Assembly (NCBI GenBank): GCA_030615855.1
Contig: JAUWYL010000012.1
Span: forward strand, 1-36,827
Origin: a bacterium
GTDB taxonomy: Bacteria; UBP18; UBA7526
Reading direction: 5' to 3'
DNA length: 36,827 bases
The notes beneath the pieces are model-generated. The model was given only the letters and a program-made list of their open reading frames with translations. It did no database searches and was not told the origin of the DNA. The position numbers were made by a program, and so were the translations under genes. Shown piece by piece: positions 1 to 29,916 of this stretch (the stretch's first letter is position 1; each line of letters begins with the position of its first letter).

Positions 1-156
1 AGATAAACCGGCTCTTAAAAGATTATTGCCTATGGAATATTTAAATTCTTTTGGTAGTTTTCTATACACCTCAAAGATTTTATCTATAAACTTTAGGGCA
101 AATTGGTAGACCTTTAGCCTTTCAAAATCAAACTGAAAATCCTCATCTTCTCCCAT
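1..156 (-). CDS. Four-helix-bundle protein (23S rRNA IVP / TIGR02436-like), 5' part; runs off the window edge
   Basis: Not in the ORF track. Manual translation from ATG 156: MGEDEDFQFDFERLKVYQFALKFIDKIFEVYRKLPKEFKYSIGNNLLRAGLS, matching the family N-terminal pattern F.xL.VYQ.A...LP..E....L.RA..S; GAGGTG RBS just upstream. Confidence 0.85.
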   Translation of the reverse strand, partial: MGEDEDFQFDFERLKVYQFALKFIDKIFEVYRKLPKEFKYSIGNNLLRAGLS

Positions 157-8248: not shown

Positions 8249-8468
8249 GGTTACATCTGACGGTTACGGCAACGAGGCCCGTATCGGTAACATTGCAGGG
8301 TTACGTTGAAAAAATCAAATGTTAAAAATTAAATATTAAAATCACAGATTAAAATCCAAAATTTTACATTTTATATTGTCATTTTGATTTTTGCATTTTG
8401 ATTTTTGATATTGCGCTATATCATTTGATATGGGCATCATAATCCTAACCGAACGACGATAAACCAAC
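8249..8468. repeat. Nested element: outer GGTTAC units, inner inverted 7-mer AAAATCA/TGATTTT arrays (8309-8410)
   Basis: ggttac at 8249, 8262 and 8299, ggtaac at 8286, taacc remnants near 8446-8466; inner arms read directly. Confidence 0.7.
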
Positions 8469-11709: not shown

Positions 11710-11758
11710 TGATCCGATTTCCTTTAATCCTTTCGACCCTTCACAAGACAAGATAGGT

Positions 11759-11879
11759 AACCACAGATTTTCACCAGATTCTCACAAGATTTTTGAAATT
11801 TCCTCTGTGTTAACCCCGCCCCTGCGTGCAGGAGCGGGGTTAATCTGTGCAATCTTGTGGTTTCATTAAAGTTCCGATG
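11759..11879. repeat. CACAGAT-family dispersed element, copy 1, with 26-bp palindrome between two TTAA
   Basis: First 35 bp identical to 21852-21886; insert at 11814-11839. Confidence 0.85.
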
Positions 11880-11887
11880 CTTTTAAA

Positions 11888-11954
11888 TATTAGCGATGAT
11901 TTCCGCCAAACTAACGGCGGACAGGCGCGTTCCGATATTCGCGGAAATTCGTGT
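11888..11954. repeat. ATTCGCG-type array interrupted by CCGCC...GGCGGACAGG palindrome (11903-11925)
   Basis: Removing 11903-11925 restores gatttcgcg. Confidence 0.6.
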
Positions 11955-11973
11955 CTTATTTATTTGTAATTAT

Positions 11974-12429
11974 TTACGTCTTCAAATATTTTTCTTCAAT
12001 CTCAATGAGTTTCTTCAGTCTCCTTCGGTGGCGGCCACCAGAAAACTTGGTTATTAAGAATAGCTTTACCAGCTCCTTTGCCAGTTCCTTCTCAACAACG
12101 TCTGCCCCTAAGGCTAATACATTGGCATCCAGGTGCTCCCGGGCCATCCTGGTGGTGAAGAGATCATGGCACTGAGCAGCCCTTATTCCCGGAATCTTGT
12201 TGGCAGTTATCGAGACTCCGATCCCGGTTCTACAGATCACAATTCCCCTATGGCACTTACCACTGGCCACCGCCTCTGCTACTTTGTAGCCAAAGTCTGG
12301 ATAGTCAACGGACTCTGCGCTCTCTGTCCCAAAATCGATGTAGGTATGGCCGTAGTCCTTGAGGTATTTCTTAATCTCTTCTTTCAGATAGAACCCTCCA
12401 TGATCGCTCCCTAAGGCAATCCTCATCAT
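11974..12429 (-). CDS. rpiB: Ribose-5-phosphate isomerase B
   Basis: GSDHGG, SVDYPD, ICRTGIG..ANK.PGIRAA, FSGGRH motifs. Confidence 0.96.
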   Translation of the reverse strand: MMRIALGSDHGGFYLKEEIKKYLKDYGHTYIDFGTESAESVDYPDFGYKVAEAVASGKCHRGIVICRTGIGVSITANKIPGIRAAQCHDLFTTRMAREHLDANVLALGADVVEKELAKELVKLFLITKFSGGRHRRRLKKLIEIEEKYLKT

Positions 12430-12484
12430 TCACCCCTTAATTTAGGATAGACGCCAGGCAATCTGGCTAGATTCTTCGCACTGC

Positions 12485-12552
12485 TCAGAATACAGGAAAT
12501 CAGGTGATCAGGAACTTCCTGATCGCCTGATGACCCGATAACCCGATCACCC
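12485..12552. repeat. Inverted pair of 8-mer arrays TCAGGTGA / CCYGATNR
   Basis: caggaaat caggtgat cagg aactt cctgatcg cctgatga cccgataa cccgatca. Confidence 0.85.
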
Positions 12553-12556
12553 TCTA

Positions 12557-13030
12557 TTAGTCCCTGCTTAGATATTCCAAGATTCTGGGCAATGCTTTCT
12601 CCAGAGCCTCTTTTATCTCTTTTGCTATTCTTTGATAAACGCTATAAGGAAGGCCGAGAGGATCTTTGATATTCAGATTTTCTTGATAGCCAGCGAATTC
12701 CTTGAGTAAGAATACCCTTTCTTCTGCTTTAGGTTCTAGATTAAGGATAAACCTCCTGTGCTCCTCAGACATGACCAAGATGAGATTCGCCTCTTCAGTG
12801 GCCTCCTTTGAAAAGGGGGTAGTCTGATGGGCGGAAATATCCAGACCAAAGGCCCTCATGGCTTCTACCGCCTCTTTTGTGGGATTTTTGAAGGAACCAC
12901 GTTTTATTCCTGCAGAAAGAACCTTGATTCCTCTCCTCCCCCCTTCTTCAAGCATTTTTTTCAAAAGACCCTCTGCCATGGGACTACGGCAGGAGTTTCC
13001 AGTACAGACGAAGAGGATGGTCTTATTCAT
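12557..13030 (-). CDS. Low-molecular-weight protein arginine/tyrosine phosphatase (YwlE-like)
   Basis: CTGNSCRSPMAE P-loop, IKDP; gene order as Bacillus ywlC-ywlE-ywlF. Confidence 0.9.
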   Translation of the reverse strand: MNKTILFVCTGNSCRSPMAEGLLKKMLEEGGRRGIKVLSAGIKRGSFKNPTKEAVEAMRAFGLDISAHQTTPFSKEATEEANLILVMSEEHRRFILNLEPKAEERVFLLKEFAGYQENLNIKDPLGLPYSVYQRIAKEIKEALEKALPRILEYLSRD

Positions 13031-13668
13031 AGAATTTTTCCAATTACTTCTTCTATCTCTTCTCTTTTAAATGCCCCTTCTCTCAGGATAGTGGGCGGAG
13101 AGGTGGTCAGGTCTAAGACTGTGGATTCTACTCCTACCTTTGTCTCTCCTCCATCGAGGATGAGGTCTATTCTCTCCCCCAGATCCTTTATCACTTCTTC
13201 TGCTTTAGTAGGGGAGGACCTTCCCGATAGGTTGGCGCTGGGACAGGCAAGGGGGACCCCAGAGGCTTTAACTATCTCCAGGGCTATCCTGCAATCCGGC
13301 ATGCGTATGCCGATGGTATTATTCTCACCCATCATGATATCAGGTATCAGTGGAGAGGCCCTGAAGATTAAGGTTAAGGGCCCTGGCCAGAATCTTTCTA
13401 TCAGCACTTGGGCGGATTTGGGAATTTCCTGGACACATTGCCTTAGCTCTTCTTTTCTGCCGATGATGATGCTTAGCGGCTTATCGAGGGGTCTTCCTTT
13501 TATTTCAAATATCCTCTTAACCGCCTCTTCGTTTAGAGCATCTGCCCCCAGGCCATAGACTGTCTCTGTAGGAAAGGCAATTAACTTCCCTTCTTTAATT
13601 AATTTGACCGCTTCCTCAATTATTTCCTTTTTGGGATGATCAGAATCTACTTTTAAAACTTTTGCCAT
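13027..13668 (-). CDS. tsaC: L-threonylcarbamoyladenylate synthase (single-domain Sua5/YrdC)
   Basis: FPTETVYGL, KGRP, FWPGPLT, PSANLSG, ESTVLD. Confidence 0.95.
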   Translation of the reverse strand: MAKVLKVDSDHPKKEIIEEAVKLIKEGKLIAFPTETVYGLGADALNEEAVKRIFEIKGRPLDKPLSIIIGRKEELRQCVQEIPKSAQVLIERFWPGPLTLIFRASPLIPDIMMGENNTIGIRMPDCRIALEIVKASGVPLACPSANLSGRSSPTKAEEVIKDLGERIDLILDGGETKVGVESTVLDLTTSPPTILREGAFKREEIEEVIGKIL

Positions 13669-13690
13669 TTCTTCTCCTGCCCAACCAAGA

Positions 13691-13843
13691 TAACCCCTTC
13701 GGGGTTACTTCCATAGGGGCTTTGCCCCTCTGGCGGTCGGCAAAGGCATGCTTTGCCTCCCTGTCACCCCCTGGGGGCAAGCAGATTCTTTCCCCCCAGA
13801 CCCCCTAATCATCGGTATCGGAATTTATTGAAATTCCGATACC
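13691..13843 (-). other. Run of five GC-rich hairpins in the predicted tsaC leader
   Basis: Stems at 13691-13707, 13715-13729, 13739-13757, 13771-13799 and 13814-13843. Confidence 0.6.
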
Positions 13844-13862
13844 TCAAATCCATCTCACAACG

Positions 13863-16661: not shown

Positions 16662-18245
16662 TTACCTTACAATCTGGACATCGCCCGGGTCCCTTGGTTT
16701 TATTTGCAATCTTCCCTTGTGGCTTGCGATCTCACCTGAGACCTGAATCTTTGTTCCTTGAATGAGAGAAGCTCTTTGTGGTATCTCGTCGTAGAGATCT
16801 CTCCAGATTAAGACATCTATGCTTCCCGTGCCATCACTAATCTTTATTGACCTACCTGTGGCCTCCTTAAAGACATAGACACTAGTTATGGTTCCCTTCA
16901 ATGTTGCCCTTTGACCAACTGAGGCCTGGGTGATGCTTCCAATGGAGGTGACACCGGCAACAGGAGCTGCAGTTGGAACAGTGGGTGCAGCAGGCACAGC
17001 GGGAACAGCACCTAAAATTTGAATATCTCCCGAGCTCCTTGGTTTAATCTGGGGCCTCCCCTTGTAACTTGCGATTTCTCCTGAGACCTGAATCTTTGTT
17101 CCTTGAACGAGAGAAGCTCTCTGTGGTATCTGGTCGTAGAGATTCTTCCAGATTACAACATCTATAGTTCCTGTGCCATCACTTATCTTTAAGGTACGAC
17201 CCTTGGCCTCCTTAAAGACCCTAACAGAGGTTATTGTTCCTTTTAATGTTGCCCACTGACCAACACTGGCCTGGGTGATACTACCAATGGAGGTCACACC
17301 AGCAGCTGGAGCAGTTGGTGCAGCCTCTGCAGGGGAAGGCCCGATGACTGGAGCTGCTGCTAAGTCGGAGGTAAATTTGACCCTCTCCGGCATCTGAACC
17401 GTCATGCTGGGCCGGCCCGCCATGACCTGAAGTTGGCCTGCTACCTCCACTCGATCTCCCATCTTGGGAAGTCTGTTCGTTCTCAATAGTTCCTCAACTG
17501 TTATACCAAGGGATTCTGCATACCCCCTTATCAATCCCTGGGCGGTCTTGCCCCAGGATCTAATCTGTATGTCACCAGTACCGTCACTTACCCGGAAATA
17601 GAGAGAATTAATCTTCTCGATGCCCAGAGCAAGAGGGGTTATCTGGGCAGGAGGGGGTTCAATCTCACTGACAGAGATTATTTTTATCTCAGTTGGCGAG
17701 CCAAGCCCTATTTGGAGTTGCCCTCTGTAAGTTTTAACCACTCCTTCCACAGAGATGGGGGTTCCCTCCCTCAACGATTGTCTATAAGGAATCATATTGT
17801 AAAGGCTATCCCACATCACAACATTGACGGTGCCCGTTCCATCGTCGATCTTCAGCGACCTCCCTCCCGGGAAGGTTCTAACATTTATAATCGTTCCCTT
17901 TGTCTTCACCTTCTGCTTAATAATCGCCTCACTTATCTGGCCGATGCGTGCTTCCTCTGCTCCTGCGATAAAATATGTTGCATCCCGGGTTAGAGTACCG
18001 CAGATCCGGATATAGGCCCAGTTCATGGTCTCGGTGATATCCTTGACCTTTATGGTTGGAATCTCTATAATCCTCACCGCAAAGTATAGGAGGATTAATC
18101 CGACAACAGCCACCACTACGGCGCCATACCTGAAGAACCTGACGGTCATTCTCTTCTTGACCGCTGCTCCACAGTAGGGACATTTCTCATGAATCCCAAC
18201 AAACCTTCCACAACTGGGACAGATTACCTCTTGGTCTTTTTCCAT
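16662..18245 (-). CDS. Zinc-ribbon + TM + four OB-fold domain protein
   Basis: CPSC..CPYC, one TM helix, four DGTG-containing OB repeats; ATG 18245 after AAAGGAGG. Confidence 0.8.
   Translation of the reverse strand: MEKDQEVICPSCGRFVGIHEKCPYCGAAVKKRMTVRFFRYGAVVVAVVGLILLYFAVRIIEIPTIKVKDITETMNWAYIRICGTLTRDATYFIAGAEEARIGQISEAIIKQKVKTKGTIINVRTFPGGRSLKIDDGTGTVNVVMWDSLYNMIPYRQSLREGTPISVEGVVKTYRGQLQIGLGSPTEIKIISVSEIEPPPAQITPLALGIEKINSLYFRVSDGTGDIQIRSWGKTAQGLIRGYAESLGITVEELLRTNRLPKMGDRVEVAGQLQVMAGRPSMTVQMPERVKFTSDLAAAPVIGPSPAEAAPTAPAAGVTSIGSITQASVGQWATLKGTITSVRVFKEAKGRTLKISDGTGTIDVVIWKNLYDQIPQRASLVQGTKIQVSGEIASYKGRPQIKPRSSGDIQILGAVPAVPAAPTVPTAAPVAGVTSIGSITQASVGQRATLKGTITSVYVFKEATGRSIKISDGTGSIDVLIWRDLYDEIPQRASLIQGTKIQVSGEIASHKGRLQIKPRDPGDVQIVR
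16665..17306. repeat. Intragenic tandem duplication, 345-bp period (last two OB domains)
   Basis: gagacctgaatctttgttccttgaa at 16738 and 17083; ccaatggaggt at 16939 and 17284. Confidence 0.9.
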
Positions 18246-18284
18246 CTGATTCCTCCTTTGCAATACCTTAGCGTTTTTGCGTTA

Positions 18285-19868
18285 TTAGTGTCTGAAGTGT
18301 CTTATTCCAGTAAAGGCCATGGCTATATTATGCTCGTCACAGGCTTTAATTATTTCTTTATCTCTTATTGAACCCCCTGGTTGGATAATAGCAGAAACCC
18401 TTGCTTTCGCTGCCTCATCGATGGAATCCCTAAAAGGGAAGAAGCCATCAGAAGCCATCACTAAGGGGATGTGGGATGTGGGATGTGGGATGTGGGATTG
18501 CATTTTTGAAATGGCGATTTTGACTGCGTCAATACGAGAGGTCTGGCCAGCACCGATGCCCAAAGCCTCGGTCTTGTTGCCTATGACGATAGCATTGGAC
18601 TTAATATATCTTACCACTTTCCAATTGAAAAGTAAAGCCTTTATTTCTTCTTGAGTGGGCGATCTTCTGGTCATCACTTTCAGCTCTTTAATTTCGATAT
18701 CTTCAGTATCTCTATCCTGAACCAATAATCCCCAGTCTACTGTCCGCATATCTTTTTGGTGATCGGTGATCCGACCCGGCTTTGCCGGGTGCCCGCGGTG
18801 ATCGGTGATTTTTATTACTCGTAGATTCTTCTTCCTCTTCAAAACTCTCAAAGCCTGAGGAGTGAATTCAGGGGCGATCACTGCCTCAATGAAGGTGGAG
18901 GTTAGCTCTCCAGCTGTAGGAGTATCGACCTTTCTATTCAGGCCGACCACTCCTCCAAAGGCAGAAAGGGGATCGCAGGCTCTCGCCTTTCGATAGGCGC
19001 TAACTAAATTTCTATCTCTCGCTACTCCGCAGGGGTTGGTATGCTTAATAATAACCGCAGTCGGCTCCTTAAACTCTTTGACTATAGTTAAAGCAACATC
19101 CAGATCCAGAATGTTATTAAAGGATAACTTCTTCCCCCATAGTTGCTTCCAATTTTGCATTTTGCATTTTACATTTTGCATTTGATACAGGGCTGCCCTC
19201 TGATGGGGATTCTCCCCATACCTCAAATTCTGTACCTTCTCATATTCTAGGTATAATTCTCTCGGTAACTGGTAACTGGTAACTGGTAACTGGTAACTCT
19301 TTAAGTATCCATATACCATTCTATCATATTTCAGGAGATATCTAAGGGCTTTTTTTGCTAAATTCTCTTTAGTCTTTTGTGATAGATTGCCCTTTCTTTT
19401 CCTTAATTCATCTAGGGTTCTTTTATAATCTTCAGGATTGATGATTACTCCCACATTCTGGTAGTTTTTGATCGCTGCTCTAATCAGAGCTGCTCCTCCA
19501 ATATCCATACCCTCTAAATTTTTCCTGGGGGGGTAGAGGTTAACGGCGACAAGATTGATGGGTTTTATATCTTCTCTGGCCAGCTCTTTCAAATGCTTTC
19601 TGTTACGTAAGGCTAATATGCCCCCAAAAATCGCAGGATGCAGGGTCTTTACTCTCCCTCCTAAAATTTCCTTAAAGTCTGTAATCTCTGAGACGGTTTT
19701 GACTGGGATATCCTTCTTTTTAAGTGTTCTCGCTGTGCCCTTAGTAGCGATGATTTCAAAGCCCAATCTCACTAATCCCTTAGCAAAAGGAACAAGACCT
19801 TCTTTATCGGCAACACTAATTAAAGCTCTCTTTATTTTCTTTCCCGTCGAAAATTTTTCATTTTTCAT
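18285..19868 (-). CDS. purH: Bifunctional AICAR transformylase / IMP cyclohydrolase
   Basis: RALISV, GRVKTLHP, LRYGENPHQ, KHTNPCGVA, KSNAI, ASDGFFPF, GIRHFRH. Confidence 0.97.
   Translation of the reverse strand: MKNEKFSTGKKIKRALISVADKEGLVPFAKGLVRLGFEIIATKGTARTLKKKDIPVKTVSEITDFKEILGGRVKTLHPAIFGGILALRNRKHLKELAREDIKPINLVAVNLYPPRKNLEGMDIGGAALIRAAIKNYQNVGVIINPEDYKRTLDELRKRKGNLSQKTKENLAKKALRYLLKYDRMVYGYLKSYQLPVTSYQLPRELYLEYEKVQNLRYGENPHQRAALYQMQNVKCKMQNWKQLWGKKLSFNNILDLDVALTIVKEFKEPTAVIIKHTNPCGVARDRNLVSAYRKARACDPLSAFGGVVGLNRKVDTPTAGELTSTFIEAVIAPEFTPQALRVLKRKKNLRVIKITDHRGHPAKPGRITDHQKDMRTVDWGLLVQDRDTEDIEIKELKVMTRRSPTQEEIKALLFNWKVVRYIKSNAIVIGNKTEALGIGAGQTSRIDAVKIAISKMQSHIPHPTSHIPLVMASDGFFPFRDSIDEAAKARVSAIIQPGGSIRDKEIIKACDEHNIAMAFTGIRHFRH
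18466..18498. repeat. (GGGATGT)x4.7 in frame in purH
   Basis: Perfect array; encodes SHIPHPTSHIP. Confidence 0.95.
18758..18809. repeat. (GGTGATC)x4 split by hairpin ACCCGGC-TTT-GCCGGGT, in frame in purH
   Basis: Encodes ITDHRGHPAKPGRITDHQ. Confidence 0.9.
19152..19184. repeat. (ATTTTGC)x4.7 in frame in purH
   Basis: Encodes QMQNVKCKMQN. Confidence 0.92.
19264..19298. repeat. (GGTAACT)x5 in frame in purH
   Basis: Perfect array; encodes SYQLPVTSYQLP. Confidence 0.95.
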
Positions 19869-19879
19869 TTTACATTTTT
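19853..19879. repeat. (ATTTTTC)-type array spanning the purH start and upstream stop
   Basis: atttttc atttttc attttac attttt. Confidence 0.75.
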
Positions 19880-27015: not shown

Positions 27016-29916
27016 CTAAAAAACTACCGCCATTCCCAGCCAGGGCCGAACATCCTCGTAGTCATCGAAGCCATGGGCTAAGGCAAGTTCCAGGTTCAGA
27101 GGAATATGATAGAAGATGAAGGATTTCAGGCGAATCCCAGCTCCGGCATCAGTATCGAAGTCACCGATGGATAGTTTCCCTTGGAACCAGGCAGTACCAC
27201 TATCCACAAAGAGCATGCCATATAGCCTGTCAAGATAGAAGAAGGAGAGCTTCTTTCCCATATCCTGTAGGATGGGAAAGCGATACTCTGCGCTCCAGAA
27301 GCCCATCTTATCTCCGCGAAAAGAGTTATATTCATAGCCTCTCAGGTTCTCCATCCCTCCTAAGAGGAAGGCGCCCTGGCTCAGGTTATGTCCCTTACAG
27401 AAGCCCCCCATGGCTCTCAGGGCCAGGGTATGACGCTTATAGAGGGGAATATATTCTCGCCAATCCAGGGTATATTCGTTGAAGTTGAAATCGCTCCCAT
27501 AGGATTCATCTGCTAAAGCATAAGAAAGGATGACCCGTCTCCCTTGCGGGTTGATATCCATGTCCAGAGTAGGTTTTATCCGATAATGCATGAGGCTCGC
27601 TCCCCAGGTAGCGATATGGCCATCATCTGGAAGATTGGGAGGATTAATGTCCCTGTCGGTATCTATGTCATCAACGAAGTAAGCCTCATAATCTAATAAT
27701 AGATACCCTATCGGTACCAAGGGAAAGCCAGCACCTACTATTCCTCCCCGCCTCCTCTCCCAGTAATCATCGGTCAGATTATCCTGATTGGGACCCTCAA
27801 TATAGTTGGTGTAACCAAGAGAGTAATCATAAGCACCAACTAGGATATTGGGAAAGAACTGACGATTGAGATAGTAGGCATAGCCCGATACCCCCCCATA
27901 CCCCCCATAGCCAATAGCGCTTTGGAAGATATGTTTCCCCATGACATCTTGGGCGTAGCCCATGACGCTCAAGCCCAGGGGCATCCATAGAATGGGCCTT
28001 ATTCTCGGTCGATACTTTCTTACCGGGTATTCCTCCCTCTCCTCTGCTTCAGGATTATTACTTGAAAATGAATCGGGGAATCGGTGTATTTCTGTATCGG
28101 TGTAACGGCGCGTCGGTGTATCGGTGTAATTCTCTTCTACTCCCTTACTCCGATACTCCGTTACTCCCTTACTTCCTTCTTCCTTCTCTAAGACCTTAAT
28201 GTCATAGCCATCTGCGCTATAAGCGGAGAAGACGACCCCCTCTCTCCCAGAAGAGTAGGAAGGCTCAAAGGCTCCCCCAATGACATTGGTCAGTTGTTTT
28301 ACCCTCTTTGTTTCTAAATCGAGTTCATAGATGTTGAAGATTCCCGTCCTATCTGAGGAGAAGATGATTCTCTTGCCATCCTTTGACCAGGAGGGATCCC
28401 GATCATCCGCTTTATCATTGGTAAGGGAGACTATTTCTGATCCATCGACATTCATTAGATATAGATCCCTCTGGCCGTCCTTGAATCTGGAGAAGACGAT
28501 CTTCTTTCCCTCTGGTGAGAACTTGGGAGTGAAGTACTGAGTGTAGTCCTCGGTCTTTGTAAGATAGATAACCTCTTCTGTTTCCAAACTAAAGAGGCAA
28601 ATATTCGTCTTCCCTCCTTCATTCTTGATAAAGACAATAGTTTTTCCATCTGGTGAGAGATGGGGCTCCTTGGCCCTCATCCCCCGGGTGAGGCGCCTCT
28701 TCTTATTTACCTGCGTCCAGTCAATGAGATAGAGATCACTATAATAGGAACCCCGCCAGTTATACCAATTCTTAGAGTAGACTAACTTCTCTCCATCATA
28801 GGAGAAGGAGGGATCGGGATTGACTTTCCCCGCCAAGCACCTATGTTTCTCACTATCCAGGTCCCAGAGATAGAGCCTTAATCTCTCATAGTCCTGACCC
28901 TTATTGGAGACAAAGGCTATCTCATTTTTAGTTGGCGAGAAGGTAGGATGCCTATCACACCATCCCCGGGAGACCAGGTCCTTGACATTCTCATCAGGGG
29001 TGATATGCTTAGTCTCTTCCCTATACTTCTTCTCCAGATCCTCCTTCCACTCCTTATAGAGCCACCTGGGAGTATCCTTCACTCGGTAATACATATTTCT
29101 CTTTAGGGACAGATAATTATGGCCTTTTCCCTCTAAGATGGAGGCGATACCTTCTTCCCCGTGCTTCTTCTTCATATATTTGGTGAGAGAATAGCCCTGA
29201 TTGTAGACCATCTCATTCCCTAAGCCGTTCTTCCCATAGACCCCCATCCGATTATAGGTGAGTAGCTTATCCTCTAATGTTGCACTCCTTAGGATCATAT
29301 CTCGATGGCTATCCCAGAATTCCCCTCCGCCTTCTTCGCTGGTATCCTGGGCCAATCCCTCAATGAACCAAGAGGGGACGAATTCACTGGGCCCGGGGAA
29401 TCCCGGACCGAATACCTTAACCAGCCTTCTGGGAAGACCGCTCATGATATCTAGATGGACGATGTGAGTAAACTCGTGAGGGATGACCGTCTCCAGCCAC
29501 TTATGGGTTCCCCTCAAGGAAATATCCATATGGGTGAGCCAGATGACAATCCTCTGATTTGCGGAATCGGCAAATCCATTGGCATAATCATCAGTATCTA
29601 AGATAATGATGTGGGTCTTGGCCTCTGGCTCATGGCCCAGTCTCTTGGTAATCGGTCCATAGCATCTCTCCGCAATCTGGGCTACATCCTTAGCAACGTC
29701 TGTATGTTTTCTCTTATCAAAGTAGACCAGAAAATGAGGGGTCTCCATGACATACCACTTTATCTCTGGATGGTTGAAGGGAGACCAGGGAACCTGCCCC
29801 AGGATAATTTCCTCTGGGGTCTTAGGAATTAAATTAGGGGATAGAAGATTCTGAGCAAGTATATTCTGGGAAAAGAAGAGGACTATTAAGACTAAAGTAA
29901 AAAATATTTTTTTCAT
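27016..29916 (-). CDS. Exported gluzincin-like peptidase domain + PD40/TolB-like beta-propeller + BamA/TamA-like C-terminal barrel
   Basis: Signal peptide, HEFTH..WFIEGLA, repeated P.FSP.G..I.F blades, LGG..NLRGY...F.G, SAEYRFP, FVDSG, C-terminal F; ATG 29916 preferred. Confidence 0.8.
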   Translation of the reverse strand: MKKIFFTLVLIVLFFSQNILAQNLLSPNLIPKTPEEIILGQVPWSPFNHPEIKWYVMETPHFLVYFDKRKHTDVAKDVAQIAERCYGPITKRLGHEPEAKTHIIILDTDDYANGFADSANQRIVIWLTHMDISLRGTHKWLETVIPHEFTHIVHLDIMSGLPRRLVKVFGPGFPGPSEFVPSWFIEGLAQDTSEEGGGEFWDSHRDMILRSATLEDKLLTYNRMGVYGKNGLGNEMVYNQGYSLTKYMKKKHGEEGIASILEGKGHNYLSLKRNMYYRVKDTPRWLYKEWKEDLEKKYREETKHITPDENVKDLVSRGWCDRHPTFSPTKNEIAFVSNKGQDYERLRLYLWDLDSEKHRCLAGKVNPDPSFSYDGEKLVYSKNWYNWRGSYYSDLYLIDWTQVNKKRRLTRGMRAKEPHLSPDGKTIVFIKNEGGKTNICLFSLETEEVIYLTKTEDYTQYFTPKFSPEGKKIVFSRFKDGQRDLYLMNVDGSEIVSLTNDKADDRDPSWSKDGKRIIFSSDRTGIFNIYELDLETKRVKQLTNVIGGAFEPSYSSGREGVVFSAYSADGYDIKVLEKEEGSKGVTEYRSKGVEENYTDTPTRRYTDTEIHRFPDSFSSNNPEAEEREEYPVRKYRPRIRPILWMPLGLSVMGYAQDVMGKHIFQSAIGYGGYGGVSGYAYYLNRQFFPNILVGAYDYSLGYTNYIEGPNQDNLTDDYWERRRGGIVGAGFPLVPIGYLLLDYEAYFVDDIDTDRDINPPNLPDDGHIATWGASLMHYRIKPTLDMDINPQGRRVILSYALADESYGSDFNFNEYTLDWREYIPLYKRHTLALRAMGGFCKGHNLSQGAFLLGGMENLRGYEYNSFRGDKMGFWSAEYRFPILQDMGKKLSFFYLDRLYGMLFVDSGTAWFQGKLSIGDFDTDAGAGIRLKSFIFYHIPLNLELALAHGFDDYEDVRPWLGMAVVF
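28070..28174. repeat. In-frame inverted pair of 8-mer arrays (ATCGGTGT / TACTCCNW)
   Basis: Encodes SKGVTEYRSKGVEENYTDTPTRRYTDTEIHRFPDS between propeller and barrel. Confidence 0.85.

Follow-up and report, generated by a model that had tools for sequence, protein, structure and literature searches.

The abundance of heptamer repeats in bacteria poses an old open question, and it is usually ascribed to polymerase slippage. Long heptamer simple-sequence repeats (SSRs) are familiar from cyanobacteria, where they are known as STRR, heptamers such as those of Haemophilus HMW are examples of phase-variable SSR contingency loci, and palindromic elements that are translated in frame within proteins include the Rickettsia RPE and the REP elements. 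According to the accessible portions of the published reports, Geobacter metallireducens contains multicopy elements, each made up of four or five hepta- or octanucleotide units in tandem, which are located within as well as between genes and are paired on opposite strands (PMC2700814). The TAACTGA heptamer of Beggiatoaceae was reported together with an excess of heptamers, for which slippage was proposed (PMC4679880), and the heptamers GGGAATC of Xanthomonas, which is found in convergent pairs, and GGGGAYT of Nostoc have also been described (PMC4692102). Lastly, the intervening sequence (IVS) in the 23S rRNA of Coxiella harbors an S23p (PF05635) open reading frame (ORF) with tandem heptamers before its start codon, and S23p is a homopentamer (PMC4990558).

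Here we describe heptamer arrays at purH in an uncultured sediment bacterium, whose genome is referred to as G000, and the behavior of similar arrays throughout this genome. The window that was analyzed is the whole stretch of 36,827 nt in which this purH gene is located. As far as the accessible text of the reports on long heptamer SSRs goes, the G000 arrays share with them the excess of heptamers, the presence of intergenic and of some intragenic copies, an unknown function, convergent pairs and an orientation that is limited by stop codons (PMC4679880, PMC4692102). However, these reports describe one dominant word per genome, as compared with 95 heptamer words in G000, their in-gene copies are mostly at protein ends and not in internal loops of core enzymes, and it is only in G000 that the word at a given site is seen to be exchanged. 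In the part of the Geobacter report that is accessible, the elements are described as putative regulatory sites, and no cassette gene, orthologous slots or word replacement are described (PMC2700814). The Coxiella IVS resembles the cassettes of G000 in its four-helix-bundle ORF between inverted repeats, but the latter are located between protein or tRNA genes and have repeats as both of their arms, whereas the purH arrays are gene-less single arms (PMC4990558, accessible text).

The arrays of G000 also resemble contingency loci in their non-triplet 7-nt units. They differ from them in that their length stays close to 33 nt and preserves the frame, and that it is the sequence and not the count which changes; they are located in purH and other core housekeeping enzymes instead of in genes for surface or host-interaction functions. 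What is new here is the counts showing that words are replaced from a shared stock, for which plain slippage is not enough. For the replacement of words at orthologous heptamer arrays, and likewise for repeat-armed PF05635 cassettes outside rRNA, no report was found in the open literature; subscription journals and supplements (for the former notably those of PMC2700814) may hold one.

Genomes and Comparisons

The G000 genome is 93.6% complete. G002 is its congener, and G003 and G004 are further relatives within the family. The in-depth comparison is of two genomes only, G000 and G002, and covers 1.17 Mb of about 1.3 Mb; the comparison with G003 as an outgroup covers 0.44 Mb of about 1.2 Mb. 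PurH is present in 26 of the 31 genomes searched, and the G000 gene was included in a codon alignment with those of the three family members that have PurH. The 765 orthologue pairs of G000 and G002 yielded 60 array sites with well-anchored flanks, unanchored sites having been dropped uncounted, and removal of one site that lies before a start codon left 59. The term stock refers to 103 intergenic word classes out of 1172 possible. Sequencing run X1 is possibly the source sample, and the strain-level purH alleles are based upon contigs of four runs, which drop rare variants.

The purH Gene and Its Arrays

The single purH ORF contains both the IMPCH (MGS-like) and the AICARFT domains (Pfam PF01808, E value 2.5e-114, and PF02142). 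Its product aligns over its full length with solved PurH structures, and all of the invariant columns of a 20-sequence alignment are retained in it, including K275-H276 and the RHF-H end. In the initial annotation of this DNA, five heptamer arrays were claimed at purH, four of them coding and in frame, and all five were found at the places given for them (Table 1), with the ORF intact. For the (ATTTTGC) array the position stood, and the copy number of 4.7 was corrected to 4.6 (92% matches). The internal hairpin noted in the GGTGATC array was confirmed as a 25-nt insert between pairs of units. The proposed location of the arrays in loops and linkers was likewise borne out by an AlphaFold model based upon the 20-sequence alignment (mean pLDDT 86.9), in which slots 1 to 4 correspond, respectively, to the predicted interdomain linker, a strand-strand loop, a long loop and the loop before ASDGFFPF; residues 359-368 of the slot 3 loop have pLDDT values below 50. 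The effect of the arrays on PurH function is probably neutral. Among 1403 ORFs, the heptamer-derived peptides SYQLPVT and SHIPHPT were each found once, and MQNAKCK and ITDHRSP twice each.

Table 1. Positions of purH, its array slots and related features in the window
Feature	Position	Strand	Description
purH, bifunctional IMP cyclohydrolase / AICAR transformylase	18285..19868	-	527 aa, intact open ORF
Slot 1	19264..19298	-	(AGTTACC)5 = (GGTAACT)5.0, 100% matches; aa 191-202, interdomain linker
Slot 2	19152..19183	-	(AATGCAA)4.6 = (ATTTTGC)4.6, 92%; aa 229-239, loop after AALY
Slot 3	18758..18809	-	GATCACC array = GGTGATC x2 + 25-nt insert + GGTGATC x2; aa 354-371, loop after KKNLRV
Slot 4	18466..18498	-	(CCACATC)4.7 = (GGGATGT)4.7, 100% matches; aa 457-468, loop before ASDGFFPF
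Slot 5	19853..19879	-	AAAATGA-type = (ATTTTTC)3.9; stop of upstream isochorismatase-family gene and overlapping purH ATG (ATGA coupling)
GC-rich hairpin mini-element, 25 nt	18772..18796	-	Takes the place of a slot 3 unit; net gain 18 nt
PF05635 four-helix-bundle gene start (cut by contig end)	1..228	-	Upstream AGTAACC arm at 198-228; belongs to the cassette family with which the word stock is shared
Gene-less cassette (arm + inverted arm, 8-mers)	28072..28178	-	Read in frame inside 973-aa Omp85-domain protein

Two further features of this region may be mentioned. About 11 residues after NLYP (aa 113-120, in the IMP cyclohydrolase domain) are missing from all four family PurH proteins and present in most outgroup proteins, a difference unrelated to the arrays. 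Directly after purH, positions 16662-18263 of the window encode a 533-aa protein, in which a zinc ribbon and at least three OB folds are present together with a probable membrane helix.

The arrays can scarcely be an artefact of assembly. The two perfect arrays (18466-18498 and 19264-19298) each contain ends of run X1 contigs, so that the exact copy number is not bridged there, but these contigs cover the stretch with 0 differences, on both sides of these arrays, and a single 825-nt piece spans both the ATTTTGC and the hairpin arrays. Moreover, arrays of the same length are present in independent genomes, and the frame is kept at all sites.

In the relatives of G000, the same loops are occupied. 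In each of the four family genomes, slot 1 consists of 5 units encoding 12 aa, and it is not longer than the outgroup linker; its words, in the same register, are GGCCACA-type in G002 and GGCTACA/AGCTACA-type in G003 and G004. At slot 2, the G000 word is also that of G002, where an in-frame 63-nt hairpin accompanies it, G004 has GATTACC x5, and G003 has no clear array. About five plain GATCACC units make up slot 3 of G002 and G003, and another word with another hairpin that of G004. Slot 4 is CTCACAT in G002 and a decayed, unrelated word in G003, the G004 sequence being cut before it. The four loops thus carry arrays in G002, at three of the four (clear or decayed) in G003, and at all three of those covered in G004. 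Slot 5 is absent in G002, and in G003 and G004 the gap is filled by other intergenic arrays. Such arrays might also have been present in orthologues from array-free genomes, but none of the 15 outgroup purH genes carries one, a single gene having a weak 3-copy run elsewhere in its sequence.

The initial annotation had interpreted the arrays as five independent events in one housekeeping gene. This interpretation had to be abandoned, as the four coding sites are already occupied in the genus and family relatives and slot 1 adds no length. The purH arrays are old slots with changing content.

It had also been suggested that gain or loss of units could turn purH on and off. A change of 7 nt would shift the frame, and the loss of one slot 5 unit would, as read from the sequence, remove an in-frame ATG. 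Additionally, a short AAAACTC run (C35:76602-76700) is the place of a frameshift in another G000 gene, which is continuous in G002 as a 531-aa frame. Nonetheless, it is very improbable that the arrays are contingency loci switching purH by one-unit changes. The purH alleles in four genomes are all in frame, every allele seen differing by a multiple of 3, and no +/-7 allele was present in the contigs of the four runs, although such contigs drop rare variants. The affected genes are mostly housekeeping, and of the six frame changes observed in G000 for 787 G002 orthologue queries with hits, only that at C35, in a gene other than purH, is at a heptamer array. In G002, seven frame changes were observed; two of them are at arrays close to the start of a gene, and none was judged to interrupt a gene internally at an array.

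Replacement of Words at Orthologous Array Sites

Long exact runs in G000 number 60 for period 7 and 39 for period 8, and at most one for other periods up to 12. The genome contains 293 period-7 segments, whereas an order-4 Markov control gave 10, all of them shorter than 18 nt. TRF analysis identified 277 heptamer and 184 octamer arrays, of which 70 and 20, respectively, are within ORFs. The 70 in-gene heptamer arrays have a median length of 32 nt, and 84% of them are 29-38 nt long. As the median number of copies is 4.6 for 7-mers and 4.4 for 8-mers, the base length (32-35) is steadier than the number of units. The genes with arrays are mostly housekeeping and include, besides purH, those identified by sequence as tRNA synthetases, FolC-like, RmlD-like and other core enzymes. 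At least two slots are present in 13 genes, where 3.8 such genes are expected, and purH lies at the upper end of the distribution of slots per gene without being unique.

An array is present in both G000 and G002 at 50 of the 59 in-gene sites. The edit distance between the two words is 0 at 13 of these sites, 1 at 7, 2 at 7, 3 at 12, 4 at 9 and 5 at 2, and is therefore at least 3 at 23. Array length is equal at 25 of the 59 sites, with the words changing instead, and 12 of the 23 far-changed sites differ by one codon or less. With such equal lengths and a narrow length range, change at these sites is not mainly by gain or loss of units. Neutral divergence between the two genomes is 0.205 at four-fold sites (57,617 sites), from which 5.9 heptamer pairs are expected to differ at three or more positions, an expectation that is widened because divergence varies along the genome; the number observed was 18 of 40. 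Within a single gene of C30 (start 79281), the array at one slot is identical between the genomes and that at another is unrelated.

The new words are drawn largely from those in use elsewhere. Of 48 changed words, 33 are already in the intergenic stock, as against 4.7 expected by drift, or 8.4 when drift is constrained to follow RRT-N-W, a pattern common to most words. Isolated variant units inside arrays match the majority word of another array 195 times out of 282 (75-95 expected), and in G002 GGTTAAG occupies six slots and GATCACC five, the G000 word being different each time. The purH arrays belong to this same stock, as had been noted from the resemblance of their units to intergenic families, and the very active process of loop rewriting proposed in the initial annotation is supported by the genome-wide word changes. 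These comparisons show that slots persist between relatives, that words often jump, and that the new words are already used elsewhere in the genome.

Comparisons of G000, G002 and G003 were possible for 24 sites. At four of them, G000 and the more distant G003 share a word or a near variant and the closer G002 differs, and at several others all three words are different. G003 has no clear array at about 7 of the 24, which indicates that not all slots are old. At a site in G000 C25 (ORF 11826-13082; G002 L069), an ACCGTTC array is common to G000 and G003, and in G002 this stretch is equally long but not repetitive; slots can thus also be erased.

Could these changes have arisen by ordinary slippage and point mutation, filtered by the reading frame and with no copying between loci? 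Slippage has been proposed for heptamers, the commonest long simple repeats (PMC4679880, in its accessible part). In accordance with this, 20 of the 50 shared sites differ by 0-1 edit, and the word stock forms a connected one-step network, with 177 one-substitution links as compared with 70-123 in controls. Many of the word changes could therefore have been stepwise under a mutational bias, among them that at purH slot 1, which is 2-3 substitutions away from G003 and G004. However, slippage does not fit the jumps of 4-5 edits, the swaps between 7-mers and 8-mers, the narrow length of the in-gene arrays, the occurrence of the same word at many slots, or the excess of stock words, which holds even allowing for the RRT-N-W pattern. 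Further, the majority word would give an in-frame stop in 9 of 67 in-gene arrays; a variant unit is present at each such place, 11 of 13 stop-avoiding variant units are drawn from the stock, and words of this kind cannot expand as pure arrays within a gene. As a full account of the arrays, slippage is in our judgment rather improbable. Fixed slots whose words are replaced from a genome-wide stock are a misfit with plain slippage, and they point to copying between loci.

Hairpins and Cassettes Associated with the Arrays

The hairpin in purH slot 3 belongs to a family with seven copies in the genome, which have variable stems and are located between the repeat units of several different words, all seven entering at the same point of the repeat unit. 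A slot 3 allele without the hairpin is seen in contigs of runs X2 and X3, and when 185,579 genomes were searched for exact matches to the purH hairpin, two were obtained, both unrelated. Like the Rickettsia RPE and REP elements, this 25-nt hairpin and the 63-nt hairpin of G002 are dispersed palindromes that are translated in surface loops. They differ in being much shorter and nested in heptamer arrays, and no Y1/RAYT transposase was found: searches of the 93.6% complete G000 genome detected no Y1 (HUH) transposase (PF01797), no reverse transcriptase (PF00078) and no DUF559. Four GIY-YIG matches are present in G000, and the three inspected are UvrC-like or flanked by other palindromes, none by the purH hairpin.

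Words of the stock are also found beside a particular class of genes. G000 has 10 matches to PF05635, 8 of them over the cut-off, and six GxxExxY/PF13366 genes, and PF05635 genes are present in all five family relatives and in 8 of 25 other genomes. PF05635 is not known to have catalytic activity. Of 30 cassettes examined in G000 and its relatives, 28 were comparable; their arms are closer to each other inverted than direct in 26 and tied in 2, some of the arms being weak. The examined cassettes are located between protein or tRNA genes and not in rRNA. Cassettes with a PF05635 gene between inverted 7- or 8-mer arms are present elsewhere in G000 and in its relatives, and the purH arrays themselves are without such a gene. 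The arm words overlap those in genes, a GGCTACA arm of G004 being the same as the slot 1 word of its purH, and a GATCACC-type arm is present in L186. The purH arrays and the cassette arms overlap in words and in length, but for a putative origin of the plain purH arrays from such arms no donor-recipient pair with a unique shared signature was traced. The G002 stretches compared contained no cassette that has GGTTAAG arms.

Twelve of 13 G000 cassette sites are spanned in G002, where eight have arrays or an empty arm pair without a gene, two a different cassette and two a gene of the same family. Four-helix-bundle proteins of 98-99% similarity are encoded at different loci between arms that are the same, and at 45-70% identity the words often differ; overall, protein similarity tracks arm words weakly (rho 0.21-0.24). 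These results show that stock words form the inverted arms of PF05635 cassettes, that these cassettes come and go or replace one another at fixed spacers, and that hairpins ride inside arrays. One PF05635 protein of G000 matches the five-chain structures 2GSC and 2RLD, and one repeat unit per subunit of a pentamer was considered, but is no more than a lead, the base length of the arrays being steadier than their number of units.

Some additional observations were made on these elements. The same four-helix-bundle gene is present at three contig ends (window 1-155, G000 C6:1-140 and the end of C26), with different upstream sequences, and the four-helix-bundle copies at C7 and C6 have an identical 31-nt arm, as of a recently copied cassette that broke the assembly. 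The GxxExxY genes, which have a PD-(D/E)XK fold, are at C30:3069-3452, C45:36814-37200 and four other places; two of them were inspected and have inverted 10-mer arrays on either side, and at GxxExxY sites G002 has one four-helix-bundle cassette and, at three, only arrays or a short gap. Several contigs of G022 contain 19 partial PF05635 matches, many of them in back-to-back pairs on opposite strands, unlike the cassettes of the G000 type. Other dispersed elements of 130-170 nt, which have many copies in relatives, are present in the window at 13677-13850, 11745-11890 and 8285-8430.

Possible Mechanisms of Array Change

The account that we favor, and consider slightly better than an even chance, is that the purH arrays are long-lived slots of about 33 bases in tolerant loops, which are overwritten, for the most part in register, with sequence copied from elsewhere among the arrays of the genome. 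The donors would be solo arrays and the arms of cassettes, the event would be conversion-like with both tract ends inside the repeat, and the overwriting may proceed unit by unit or wholesale. A candidate cassette protein, either the four-helix-bundle oligomer or the GxxExxY protein with its nuclease fold, may have the putative role of promoting this process. Selection would then discard products with a shifted frame or a new stop, and the expected result would be in-frame, stop-dodging arrays that alter loop peptides without switching the gene. At equal-length changed sites, the in-place register was the best or tied-best match in 8 of 8 (4 ties), and several far-changed sites retain old-type units at their edges as well as the register.

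Alternatively, a single arm or a cassette, empty or not, could be inserted by targeting into an existing array in a transposition-like step, with later deletion eliminating the old array and restoring length and frame. Double arrays (61 nt, two words) and pairs of arm and inverted arm are read in frame in several genes, as this would predict, and it also agrees with the replacement of cassettes by one another at spacers, with the near-identical four-helix-bundle genes (98-99%) with the same arms at different loci, and with the entry of the hairpin family at the same unit point in its seven copies. Some swaps flip polarity or alter the length by 10-37 codons, and these are better fitted by insertion and deletion. 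The agreement within one codon at 12 of the 23 far-changed sites, several of them keeping edge units and register, argues against it, as does the derivation of single units inside arrays from the stock; insertion of a full cassette would also disrupt genes like leuS and valS until trimming had taken place. We regard insertion followed by trimming as unlikely to be the general explanation, but it and in-register copying may both operate. A gene-less unit of arm and inverted arm, similar to that in the Omp85-domain protein (Table 1), was also seen in frame in an unrelated protein at G000 C6:6424-6459.

A more specific proposal, which we put forward tentatively and regard as fairly unlikely, is that the four-helix-bundle (S23p/Avd-like) and GxxExxY cassettes encode a repeat-homing system of a kind so far undescribed. 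Such a system would recognize periodic arrays of about 33 nt by a loose RRT pattern, overwrite them in register with the word of another array, and spread its genes and hairpin passengers between spacers.

Biological Significance

The arrays described here provide a clear case in which non-triplet repeat DNA supplies and changes loop peptides in essential enzymes. The purH gene, with four slots and alleles in four genomes, offers a compact test locus, and the PF05635-type cassette family provides named candidate genes for copying between loci. If the repeat-homing proposal is true, the continual rewriting of surface loops in core enzymes would be a by-product of this system, and the excess of 7- and 8-base repeats in bacteria, which has long lacked an explanation, would be accounted for.
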